From Escherichia phage MiataMamis, in the sequence record PP925834.1: a DNA stretch of 64,000 nt. The stretch is one strand, 5' to 3'. A program made the translations under genes and the position numbers. The notes below the pieces were generated by a model. That model made no database searches, was not told the DNA's origin, and worked only from the letters and a program-made list of their open reading frames with translations. Positions 24,489 to 27,321 of this stretch are shown here, piece by piece; position 1 is the first letter of the stretch; every line of letters starts with the position of its first letter.

Positions 24489-26567
24489 TTAAAAAGGTGT
24501 TTCATCGTCTTCAAAACCTGGAACAGGGTCAGAGGACGGATCATCATACGGAAGGTCTTCTTGTGTGTCAACAGGGTTAACAGTAGGAGTTACAACCTTA
24601 TCAGCCACAACCCTACCTACAGGTGTTTCTACAACTGCGTGCTCTTGATCCTCAAACATAGCTTGAGGTCTCCAAACAACCTCCCCACCTTCACCGTCTG
24701 TGAACATCTGCATTTCTTTGTCCCAGTACCAGTTGCTGGCATCATGGAACTTACCTGTGTGGGGATCCATAACTAAGGTATCCGCAATGCCTAACGTTTT
24801 TGCTGGGCGGTTTTTAAGACCTACCAGTCGGACACGTCCACGGGAACGATCCACCATCTCTTCTGCCTCCACCCCAACAACTACCCAGCTAAGTTGCTCC
24901 AATCCGGCACTGCCCCGAAGGTTCTCTTTTCGTACAGGATACCAAAAAGGTAACGGATTCCCATCCTTGTCCTTTGGAGGCACAATCTCTGTGCGTTTCA
25001 GGTGAGCGATCACCAAGATAAATACATTAAACTGCTTACAGAACGCGGCTAGTTGCGTCATAGCCATGTCAAGTTCTTTGCGCTCATCCTTAACATTAAG
25101 CCCTGAAATTACCATGGACAGGTGATCCAGCACAATGTAACGGCAGTGATACAGACACACCATTTGTTTAAGCTTAGTGATCAACTCATCTACAGGAATA
25201 GACCCAAAATGCTTGAACACTTTGATTTTTCCAGCCTTGGCCCAAGATTGGTGAATCTCAGCATGCTCCTGATCAGTCAGGAACTGACTAGGGTCTTCAA
25301 CAAACTCTTTAACATCAAACCCCAACTGGTTGGCGTATAGAGAGTTAATTGCTTCCTCAGGGTCCTCTTCAAGGTGAATCAGACACAGGCGATCATCCTC
25401 TTCATAATCATCGGCTTTAGGGCATGTCGGATCCATCAAGTATTTTGCAATGCAGTGCTCTAGTTTCTTGGCTACAGTTGTTTTACCACCGCCAGATGGG
25501 CCTGTCAGCATCATCAAGGTGCCTTTGTGGAGTCCTTTCAGCATCTTCTGCAATTTAGGGAACTCCGCGCTGATATCTACGCCATTAGAAGTCTTCTTAC
25601 GAAGAGATTCAATGGAGAAGTCTTCTAAATCAGATACAGCATCGGGCACATATTTGACTGGGTGACGGAACATGTTGACAATATCTTCCAGCTTTTTAGC
25701 CTTCAGCATGTCACGGATATCTTTTACACCGTCAGGGTCGTTTACCTCGCTGGGGTATTCCACGTGGTAAACGTTATCAGCCATCAAAAATGCCGCGATA
25801 TTATGTGTGGCTTCAACACCTTTGATAACGTGTTTTTGCTTCTCTACCTCGTTAGCTGCATCGTTGTCCATTGCAAGGACCACTGTTCCGTAGCTACGGA
25901 TAAATTTCTCATTGTTTGCAAAAGTATCTACTGCGTTTGCACATCCACAGTTAATTCCAACAAAAGGTAGGCAGGGTTTTCCTGCCAGATCACCCCCGTT
26001 GATAACTGCATCGATCCCGTCCTGGACCTCTTTAGCCCACTGTTTCACCTTTGCCGGGGCTTTAGCGTTGGTGAGAATCCCTTTTACTTGTATCTGATAT
26101 GCAGCCTGCCATGCTGCAATAACATCGCCTTCCCCCTCACAAACGTTAATCTGCTTACGGTTGTTAGAAGATGCACACAGCTTTTGCCCAAACATTTGGG
26201 AGTTAGCCTTTACGATCCCAACCGTCGTAAAGTGCCCACGTTGCTCTTTGGGGATCGTCCAGTCACGCTTTTTGAAACCGGACAGATTCCCGTAGCGGTC
26301 GTAATATGGGAAATATGTTGCAGTAACTGTCACACCGTCTTCTTGGGACAATGCTGATCGCACACCAAAATATTGTGCAGCCATCAGACCGATATTTTGT
26401 TGTGGGACAGGGACGATTTTAGTATTTTCTAAAACAGTCTCTACAGTTTCAACCTCTTTTTCATCACGATAGTCTCGTTTCACACTTCCACCACTTTTAT
26501 ACTTAGTTGCTTTCGGGTTTGGCTCACCGAAACGGTTATATGCAGATGCCATAAATTTACTTCCCAT
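24489..26567 (-). CDS. bifunctional primase-helicase (TOPRIM primase plus DnaB-like/T7 gp4-like helicase)
   Basis: TOPRIM-like VCEGEGDVIAAW and VVLAMDNDAANE; Walker A LMMLTGPSGGGKTT; SD GGAG upstream of ATG at 26567. Confidence 0.85.
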   Translation of the reverse strand: MGSKFMASAYNRFGEPNPKATKYKSGGSVKRDYRDEKEVETVETVLENTKIVPVPQQNIGLMAAQYFGVRSALSQEDGVTVTATYFPYYDRYGNLSGFKKRDWTIPKEQRGHFTTVGIVKANSQMFGQKLCASSNNRKQINVCEGEGDVIAAWQAAYQIQVKGILTNAKAPAKVKQWAKEVQDGIDAVINGGDLAGKPCLPFVGINCGCANAVDTFANNEKFIRSYGTVVLAMDNDAANEVEKQKHVIKGVEATHNIAAFLMADNVYHVEYPSEVNDPDGVKDIRDMLKAKKLEDIVNMFRHPVKYVPDAVSDLEDFSIESLRKKTSNGVDISAEFPKLQKMLKGLHKGTLMMLTGPSGGGKTTVAKKLEHCIAKYLMDPTCPKADDYEEDDRLCLIHLEEDPEEAINSLYANQLGFDVKEFVEDPSQFLTDQEHAEIHQSWAKAGKIKVFKHFGSIPVDELITKLKQMVCLYHCRYIVLDHLSMVISGLNVKDERKELDMAMTQLAAFCKQFNVFILVIAHLKRTEIVPPKDKDGNPLPFWYPVRKENLRGSAGLEQLSWVVVGVEAEEMVDRSRGRVRLVGLKNRPAKTLGIADTLVMDPHTGKFHDASNWYWDKEMQMFTDGEGGEVVWRPQAMFEDQEHAVVETPVGRVVADKVVTPTVNPVDTQEDLPYDDPSSDPVPGFEDDETPF

Positions 26568-27321
26568 TAATTCTGCTCCTTACTACAGGCTCGTTTGCTA
26601 AGAATACAGCTTTTGCCCAACCACGTGGTGTGAGGCTTCGGATCATCTTCGTTCTTGCACTCTTTCCACCCAGCTTAGCGTGTTGCATGGAGTACCCACT
26701 AACCGCGTCAACTATTTGCGGGACAGGTTTTGTGTCCGGGATTATAAATCCATTACCTATCCAGCCGCAAGTTATTTTTGGATAGGCATCACGTGGAGCT
26801 ATAAATTCAGGAAACCAGGGGTTTACATCATCCTCCGGTAAATACCCGCCATAGTCAGAAGGGTGAAAACGGTAATCAGGTTTGCGCCACAGTGTGGACA
26901 TAACACCTACAGGATTCTCTACATGCCACGGGCAATCGTAAATCTCTCCCAGCTCTTCCGCAACCCGAGCATCCTTTACAGCATTAATTTGGATCATAGG
27001 GTCCTTAGCCAGCTTTTTCTTAAAATGTGCAGCACCTGATACCGCTAAATGCGTGCACGGAGGAAATGCAAGAATAAAGTCTGGAGCTGGGTACATGCAA
27101 AAAGTTTCCTGAGGGAACCATGGGTCAATCCAATAATCCACATAGTGAATGTTGGGATGATCGGTTATCACCTCTGCATAACTGCCGTGATCAGCACCTT
27201 CTGCATTAAAGCACAGGCACAGGTACCCAGCTTTTGCCCAGTCAATGACTGCACCACCAGACCCGTCAAATAGACTCCACACAACACCTTTGTGGTAGTG
27301 TTCTTTGTAGATAAATTTCAA
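26557..27321 (-). CDS. small DNA C5-cytosine methyltransferase-like protein (254 aa from TTG; ORF-track ORF 26557..27351)
   Basis: Motif I-like LFDGSGG, PC motif FPPCTHLAVSG, ENV-like HVENPVGV at the spacing expected for C5-MTases; TTG at 27321 has SD AGGAGA, and the ORF-track GTG start lies inside a terminator hairpin. Confidence 0.5.
   Translation of the reverse strand: MKFIYKEHYHKGVVWSLFDGSGGAVIDWAKAGYLCLCFNAEGADHGSYAEVITDHPNIHYVDYWIDPWFPQETFCMYPAPDFILAFPPCTHLAVSGAAHFKKKLAKDPMIQINAVKDARVAEELGEIYDCPWHVENPVGVMSTLWRKPDYRFHPSDYGGYLPEDDVNPWFPEFIAPRDAYPKITCGWIGNGFIIPDTKPVPQIVDAVSGYSMQHAKLGGKSARTKMIRSLTPRGWAKAVFLANEPVVRSRINGK

Follow-up and report, generated by a model that had tools for sequence, protein, structure and literature searches.

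The gene and its neighbourhood

We analysed a 64,000-nucleotide stretch of DNA from Escherichia phage MiataMamis (PP925834.1), referred to here as the window, and focused on a minus-strand gene that lies directly upstream of a primase-helicase gene and encodes a small Dcm-like protein (Table 1). We consider it highly probable that this protein is an active, orphan, S-adenosylmethionine (SAM)-dependent DNA cytosine-C5 methyltransferase of a compact phage "Dcm-like" family (phrog_757), carried by an rV5-like coliphage within its replication module. A preliminary description of the window had placed the gene at 26557-27321 next to a primase-helicase, and both the coordinates and the neighbour are confirmed by the open reading frame (ORF) coordinates and by the annotation of a close relative, Escherichia phage LL12.

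The region 24000-30500 is 98.9% identical to LL12 (Vequintavirus, rV5-like), whose coordinates correspond one-to-one to window positions 1-31549, and 94-98% identical to about 120 further rV5-like Vequintavirus phages. The same coding sequence (CDS) carries the product name "DNA cytosine methyltransferase" in LL12 and "Dcm-like C5 cytosine methyltransferase" in the BASEL phage CarlMeissner. The gene is thus already annotated in near-identical genomes, and one member of its family has been characterised. It differs from the LL12 and CarlMeissner copies at 15 nucleotides each, with 13-14 synonymous and one or two non-synonymous codon changes, a pattern that indicates strong purifying selection on the gene sequence.

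The neighbours are the primase-helicase gene (24489..26567, minus strand; identified by phrog_239, E=6e-159, and DnaB_C), DNA polymerase A, a Dda/PIF1-like helicase and four small proteins of unknown function. No adjacent cognate restriction endonuclease was found in the LL12 annotation or in PHROG and Pfam scans of six neighbour proteins. The overlap between the methyltransferase stop and the primase-helicase start suggests co-transcription and translational coupling of the two genes.

Table 1. Features of the methyltransferase gene and its flanks (window coordinates; TRD, target-recognition domain)
Feature	Position	Strand	Basis or remark
Compact Dcm-like DNA cytosine-C5 methyltransferase CDS	26557..27321	-	254 aa, TTG start, TAA stop
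Motif I, F18-D-G20-S-G22-G23, SAM-binding FxGxG loop after strand beta1	27253..27270	-	Placed on M.HhaI F18/G20/G22 by hhalign
Motif IV, F86-P87-P88-C89, catalytic cysteine nucleophile	27055..27066	-	Aligned to M.HhaI P80-C81
Motif VI, E135-N136-P137, ENP variant of ENV	26911..26919	-	Column statistics
Family-specific conserved loop and strand, residues 162-185 (PEDDVNPWFPEFIAPRDAYPKITC), at the place of canonical motif VIII QxRxR	26767..26838	-	Column counts
Mini-TRD, residues 190-221, between strand beta7 and motif IX	26659..26754	-	Model secondary structure, column variability
Motif IX-like, R228-S-L-T231-P-R233	26623..26640	-	Aligned to M.HhaI R-K-L-H-P-R-E
Shine-Dalgarno AGGAGA of the methyltransferase gene	27329..27334	-	7-nt spacer to TTG; read from the sequence
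Intrinsic-terminator-like hairpin closing the upstream 160-aa gene	27343..27368	-	11 bp, GC-rich, GAAA loop, then T-run; terminator scan
Sigma-70-like promoter sequence TTGACA-17-TACAAT within the 3' end of the upstream ORF	27389..27417	-	11/12 consensus matches; scan only
Methyltransferase stop/primase-helicase ATG overlap, 11 nt	26557..26567	-	ORF coordinates; same in LL12 annotation

Catalytic core and compact fold

The protein belongs to phrog_757, annotated as "DNA methyltransferase"; the match is full-length (E=4.8e-87) and pairs its residues 2-251 with positions 5-226 of the 247-position profile. By tblastn, homologues occur in 1505 phage records, mainly Escherichia, Klebsiella, Salmonella, Shigella and Vibrio phages, and their carriers include T1-like, Jersey-like, Krischvirus (T4-like) and other phage types. 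A large protein collection holds 3548 homologous clusters, and an exhaustive profile search of 50%-identity representatives returned 2040 at E<=1e-3 and 200 at E<=1e-30. The 120 closest cluster representatives are 219-262 aa long (median 232), and diverse 50%-identity representatives with full profile coverage span about 205-260 aa, almost all homologues having 210-260 aa; judged by these lengths, compactness is a stable trait of a large family and not a truncation in this phage.

It is worth mentioning that Shigella phage SFHK24 (Krischvirus, T4-like) carries a 55%-identical homologue among small early genes, beside an Alt-like ADP-ribosyltransferase (L005:2495-3211). The genus Krischvirus is not known to contain hydroxymethylcytosine, which would be consistent with an enzyme that needs unmodified cytosine.

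Conservation was read from an alignment of 76 diverse members, 32-56% identical to the query. Motifs were placed by combining model secondary structure, column statistics and a loose hhalign comparison with M.HhaI (sequence identical to 10mh_A); the match between the family profile and M.HhaI was weak (E ~0.01, probability 3-4%) and helped to position the motifs without counting as evidence for homology. The three motifs listed in the preliminary description are present in the translation, LFDGSGG at residues 17-23, FPPCTHLAVSG at 86-96 and HVENPVGV at 133-140, and motifs I, IV, VI and IX stand in canonical order. Motif I reads (F/Y)-D-x-(T/S)-G in the diverse family, with conservation at F/Y18, T/S21 and G22 only. 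The catalytic cysteine C89 is invariant (76/76), as are E135 and P137 of motif VI, whose N136 is kept in 73 of the 76 members, and the motif is ENP rather than ENV throughout the family. In canonical enzymes the motif VI glutamate protonates N3 of the cytosine. The invariant residues are C89, E135, P137, P154, Y180, W187 and P195, and F86, P87, N136, G96, K182, T184, R228, S229 and P232 are nearly so. In the motif IX-like segment, R228 is found in 74, S229 in 69, T231 in 64 and P232 in 72 of the 76 members. A C-terminal helix (233-253) follows, and the chain ends 21 residues past R233.

Three homologues from other phage contigs of about 137 kb (P0002, P0003 and P0005; 79-81% identical to the window protein) have an acidic residue at the second glycine of motif I (FDGSE, FNGSD) and retain PPC and ENP; SAM binding could be altered or lost in these variants.

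At the place of motif VIII the family has a conserved loop of its own, LPEDDxHPxFPxxIxPRDAYPK, which ends in Y180 and K182 and gives D178-A-Y180-x-K182-x-T184 ahead of strand beta7. Counts in residues 162-185 are 76/76 for Y180, 75/76 for both K182 and T184 and 72/76 for D178, and residues 163-175 form an insertion that is missing from about a quarter of the members. We infer, rather than observe, what became of motifs VIII and X in the compact family; K182 may play the part of the motif VIII arginines.

Sequence evidence by itself for a C5-methyltransferase is thin, and it is the modelled structure that settles the question. The AlphaFold2 model (pLDDT 88.8, pTM 0.89) has a class I Rossmann-like methyltransferase fold that, in Foldseek comparisons with the PDB, comes closest to known C5-methyltransferases. 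The top structural matches are DNMT3B/3A, prophage and Shigella Dcm-type enzymes, M.HhaI and M.HaeIII, and DNMT2 enzymes occur among the structural neighbours too. A viral structure library returned the same compact family, labelled as phage cytosine methylases. Identity to the catalytic domains of the eukaryotic de novo enzymes DNMT3A and DNMT3B is only 13-15%; their nearness in structure is explained by the short target-recognition region, as their own TRDs are short. DNMT3 enzymes act as DNMT3A/3L or homo-oligomers and carry regulatory domains.

The compact fold also occurs as a domain in two very large helicase-like proteins of uncultured Caudovirales phages in BFVD, A0A6J5SE15_1 (1397 aa) and A0A6J5NPY6_2 (1126 aa), which match the compact methyltransferase in Foldseek at E=1.5e-11 and 1.1e-8, with 23-29% identity.

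The view that the protein is unusually small and has almost no TRD holds for the 254-aa window protein, with its variable region of about 25-30 aa, and for the family as a whole. Family members are about 70-100 residues shorter than classical minimal C5-methyltransferases (about 327-330 aa), and the window protein is about 75-100 residues shorter than the canonical type II enzymes M.HhaI and M.HaeIII (PF00145). By the loose hhalign comparison, the region from motif VIII and strand beta7 to motif IX has about 40 residues, of which about 25 (25-30) are variable, versus about 100 in M.HhaI, and about 75-80 residues of the M.HhaI TRD have no counterpart. The canonical QxRxR is replaced in the window family by the conserved PRDAYPK loop, and canonical motif X is not recognisable there. 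These unusual features belong to the whole family and not to this gene alone.

The mini-TRD itself exists in two mutually exclusive versions in otherwise similar proteins (window residues 205-221, nucleotides 26659..26709). Among the 120 nearest homologues, 77, including the window protein, have GYSxQHxKLGGKS, and 32, including the type found in phages K42 and G29-2, have DNPGWAKxGGKS. The two versions may confer different target specificities.

Activity, substrate and role

The experimental evidence for this family comes from Drexlerviridae phage K42. In every K42 escaper of the retron Ec86 (Eco1) defence, either a 711-bp "dcm" gene itself or its expression was lost (bioRxiv 10.1101/2023.08.16.553469; Cell Rep 2024;43:114857). 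Expression of K42 dcm was toxic only in retron-carrying cells and raised 5-methylcytosine (5mC) on the multicopy single-stranded DNA (msDNA) of Ec86, as measured by LC-MS (liquid chromatography coupled to mass spectrometry), and the mutant C82A/E128A/K175A/K176A (Dcm-mut) produced neither the toxicity nor the rise in msDNA 5mC; msDNA methylation was low in a dcm+ host without the phage enzyme (bioRxiv 10.1101/2023.08.16.553469). Later papers have taken "phage Dcm" as the trigger of Eco1.

As a stand-in for the K42/KarlJaspers-type Dcm of the Drexlerviridae we used G29-2 gp76, the product of a 711-bp gene of a related 51.7-kb Hanrivervirus, in which C82, E128, K175 and K176 are exactly as described for K42 Dcm. 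Across the full length, gp76 and the window protein share 54% identity (E=1e-85). Both proteins belong to phrog_757, both are compact (236 versus 254 aa here) and both space the catalytic Cys, Glu and first Lys alike, with C82, E128 and K175 corresponding to C89, E135 and K182; both genes are orphans near replication helicases. The family therefore includes a demonstrated 5mC-forming member, and by analogy with this homologue type the window enzyme would form 5mC and could trigger retrons. The C5-cytosine methyltransferase-like identity given in the preliminary description accordingly gains support from the invariant Cys89 and Glu135, the phrog_757 match and the 5mC-making type of its 54%-identical homologue.

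The mechanism would follow that of canonical C5-methyltransferases. Cys89 of the PPC motif would attack a flipped-out cytosine at C6, Glu135 in ENP would protonate N3, and a methyl group would be transferred from SAM bound by the FDGSGG loop. From the gene layout, the methyltransferase would be transcribed with the primase-helicase gene and is probably translationally coupled to it; co-expression with the replication machinery is probable because of the 11-nt overlap and the conserved promoter-like site upstream. Through this coupling, we propose, the enzyme would be present during phage DNA replication and would leave 5mC at its target sites. Such marks would shield these sites from cognate restriction enzymes. 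Other DNA in the cell would be methylated as well, so that the enzyme could be sensed by retron Ec86/Eco1-type defences, as its Drexlerviridae homologue is.

Several results weigh against an active methyltransferase that protects the genome. The window protein has no Pfam match (none to PF00145 even at E<=10), no NCBIfam match and no significant PDB sequence in searches with phmmer and with family profiles A1 and A3, where the best C5-methyltransferase match, DNMT2, was non-significant (E=0.35). Motif VIII QxRxR was not recognisable in the 76-member alignment or in the hhalign comparison with M.HhaI, which is of low confidence in that region, and motif X (GNxVP; GN(A/S)V) was not recognisable in either. 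K176, which is among the four residues substituted jointly in K42 Dcm-mut, corresponds to I183 here, at a position that holds K or R in 48 of the 76 members. The mini-TRD reads DNPGWAKTGGKS in K42/G29-2 versus GYSMQHAKLGGKS in the window protein, and the Vequintavirus clade differs from the K42 type by a four-residue insertion (205-208) and an N-terminal extension; with a different mini-TRD sequence, activity and above all specificity would not be simply transferable from K42 Dcm. No methylation data for this phage or any Vequintavirus were found in the literature searched. Vequintavirinae were "exceptionally susceptible" to the restriction systems tested in the BASEL study, so the enzyme gives no broad protection.

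The missing PF00145 match is a sensitivity limit of the Pfam model and not evidence against the fold. PF00145 matches 29 of 54 close homologues and exceeds its gathering score (22 bits) in only three of them (28.5, 25.4 and 24.7 bits), where the matches cover profile positions 4-94 only, that is, motifs I-IV, and just two of the 76 diverse members match at E<0.01. Neither PF00145 nor PDB profile searches pick up the window protein, because its sequence similarity to canonical C5-methyltransferases is too low.

The absent Pfam match and the missing motifs VIII and X, together with the Glu or Asp that replaces the second motif I glycine in P0002, P0003 and P0005, could also be read as signs of a catalytically dead or degenerate methyltransferase fold with a non-enzymatic role, such as DNA binding or a decoy. 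We consider this very unlikely. The catalytic Cys and Glu are under absolute constraint across the 76 members, which argues against a degenerate fold, the FDGSGG of the window protein is intact, the gene is under strong purifying selection, and the activity of the K42 homologue depends on these catalytic residues. The "degenerate fold" raised in the preliminary description is not supported; it conflicts with the strictly conserved catalytic residues and with the excess of synonymous over non-synonymous changes.

If the enzyme is active, as we think highly probable, its physiological substrate has to be considered. Only a retron msDNA stem-loop has been demonstrated as a substrate in the family, the region available for recognition is minimal, msDNA methylation is low in a dcm+ host that lacks the phage enzyme (preprint), and DNMT2 is both a structural neighbour and the best, non-significant, C5-methyltransferase match in the PDB-profile search. 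These points would suit an enzyme acting on single-stranded or hairpin DNA, or on RNA or tRNA in the manner of DNMT2, with no role in genome protection. However, the best structural neighbours (DNMT3B/3A, the prophage and Shigella Dcm-type enzymes, M.HhaI and M.HaeIII) are double-stranded-DNA enzymes, the gene sits in a DNA replication module, and the methylated msDNA stem is itself duplex DNA, which makes a substrate other than double-stranded phage DNA unlikely.

The name "Dcm-like" and the product 5mC are shared with E. coli Dcm/M.EcoRII, which is specific for CCWGG, and this target was assumed for K42 Dcm by analogy; its sole support is that mutation of CCTGG in the msDNA stem abolishes defence (bioRxiv 10.1101/2023.08.16.553469). 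The TRD of E. coli Dcm can have no similarity in the ~30-aa region of the phage family. E. coli Dcm has about 470 aa and a full-size TRD. No measured specificity, by methylome or in vitro, was found for the family in the literature searched, Vequintavirus and Drexlerviridae methylomes included. The window contains 146 CCWGG sites (observed/expected 0.92), which is uninformative on specificity, and counts in the window gave no informative depletion of CCWGG or other palindromes.

The preliminary description had also suggested a DNA hypermodification enzyme. In that case the protein would open a pathway of cytosine hypermodification, or would use a cofactor other than SAM (e.g., carboxy-SAM) to place a group larger than methyl on C5. 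Its structural neighbour 8yf3 is just one of many equally distant C5-methyltransferase neighbours. This suggestion, too, lacks support. No TET/JBP dioxygenase and no glycosyl- or other transferase gene was found in the LL12 annotation of 1-31549 or when the six neighbour proteins were scanned against PHROG and Pfam, the homologous K42 Dcm gave 5mC by LC-MS, and Vequintavirinae, unlike hypermodified phages, are exceptionally restriction-sensitive. We regard hypermodification as extremely unlikely.

The most economical reading is an orphan site-specific 5mC writer that guards its own target sites and is detectable by retron Eco1-type defences. An anti-restriction role for such an orphan methylase is plausible; protection would not extend past its own sites, and the phage DNA lacks global modification. 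In the BASEL study, the methyltransferase genes of Drexlerviridae had no simple link to restriction resistance. T5-like phages, whose virion DNA is without 5mC (PMC10644984), were considered as an argument against genome methylation; this argument does not apply, since neither tblastn nor a profile search of the six-frame translation found a homologue of the methyltransferase in the first 86 kb of T5.

Beyond this orphan 5mC writer, we tentatively consider, as a possibility that we hold to be rather doubtful, that phrog_757 represents a distinct minimal C5-methyltransferase architecture. Such enzymes, with no canonical TRD or motif X, would read DNA with the ~25-aa loop and the PRDAYPK insertion, might work as a DNMT3-like dimer and would have a short or relaxed specificity other than CCWGG, with different targets for GYSxQH and DNPGW, and their main role might not be classical restriction evasion (e.g., marking replicating DNA or interfering with the host). 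If true, this would explain why retron Ec86 is activated by the phage enzyme but not by host Dcm in dcm+ cells, as well as the reported toxicity of phage enzyme expression.

For this phage alone these results have little import, as the gene is a correctly annotated, conserved rV5-like component. The compact family is highly abundant among phages of enterobacteria, some of them therapy candidates directed at Klebsiella, E. coli and Salmonella, and it is a known retron trigger, so that presence of the gene may predict sensitivity to retron Eco1-type systems. A very small 5mC writer with defined specificity could serve as a tool enzyme, and the remaining interest lies in the minimal architecture and specificity of the family.

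Start codon, flanking signals and neighbouring genes

The mechanical ORF around the gene extends over 26557..27351 (minus strand) and gives 264 aa if counted from a GTG, while the TTG at 27321..27319 gives the 254-aa product. The preliminary description had argued for the TTG behind AGGAGA, and correctly so. The GTG (27351..27349) sits within the 3' arm of the terminator hairpin stem, has no Shine-Dalgarno sequence and was rejected as the start; the longer N-terminus is carried by none of the homologues compared, which start within a few residues of the first beta-strand. LL12 has an annotated ribosome-binding site at 27330..27334, the TTG start is shared by the public gene calls in LL12 (CPT_LL12_214) and CarlMeissner (bas48_0074), both 765 bp, and a 99%-identical cluster representative (P0001) has 254 aa.

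The hairpin, with a predicted RNA folding energy of -23.1 kcal/mol (27368..27343), is 100% conserved in CarlMeissner and may also act as a 5' stabiliser or attenuator. The sigma-70-like sequence, identical in CarlMeissner, is a possible promoter for the methyltransferase/primase-helicase unit, as read from its consensus matches; the consensus scan gave no more such sites in the region than expected from shuffled sequence. Only some 20 nt separate the site (27417..27389) from the hairpin downstream, so that a transcript from there would meet it at once. Across 27300-27440 (141 nt) a single base, within the CDS, differs from CarlMeissner, and the compared 6.5-kb stretch is about 94.7% identical.

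In most Vequintaviruses (V5, CarlMeissner, ime, nimi and others), an N6-adenine methyltransferase gene of about 1.3 kb lies between the homologues of ORFs 28263..28565 and 28626..28967. This gene is missing here and in LL12, where a 60-bp gap stands at 28565..28626 (compared with L003:5083-6408). The 100-aa ORF at 28263..28565 has a weak match to phrog_1573, "DNA methyltransferase" (E=2e-4). The DNA polymerase A gene (21377..24430, minus strand) is annotated in LL12 as intron-interrupted, in two joined pieces, and the mechanical ORF 21653..24430 (925 aa) spans just part of that region.

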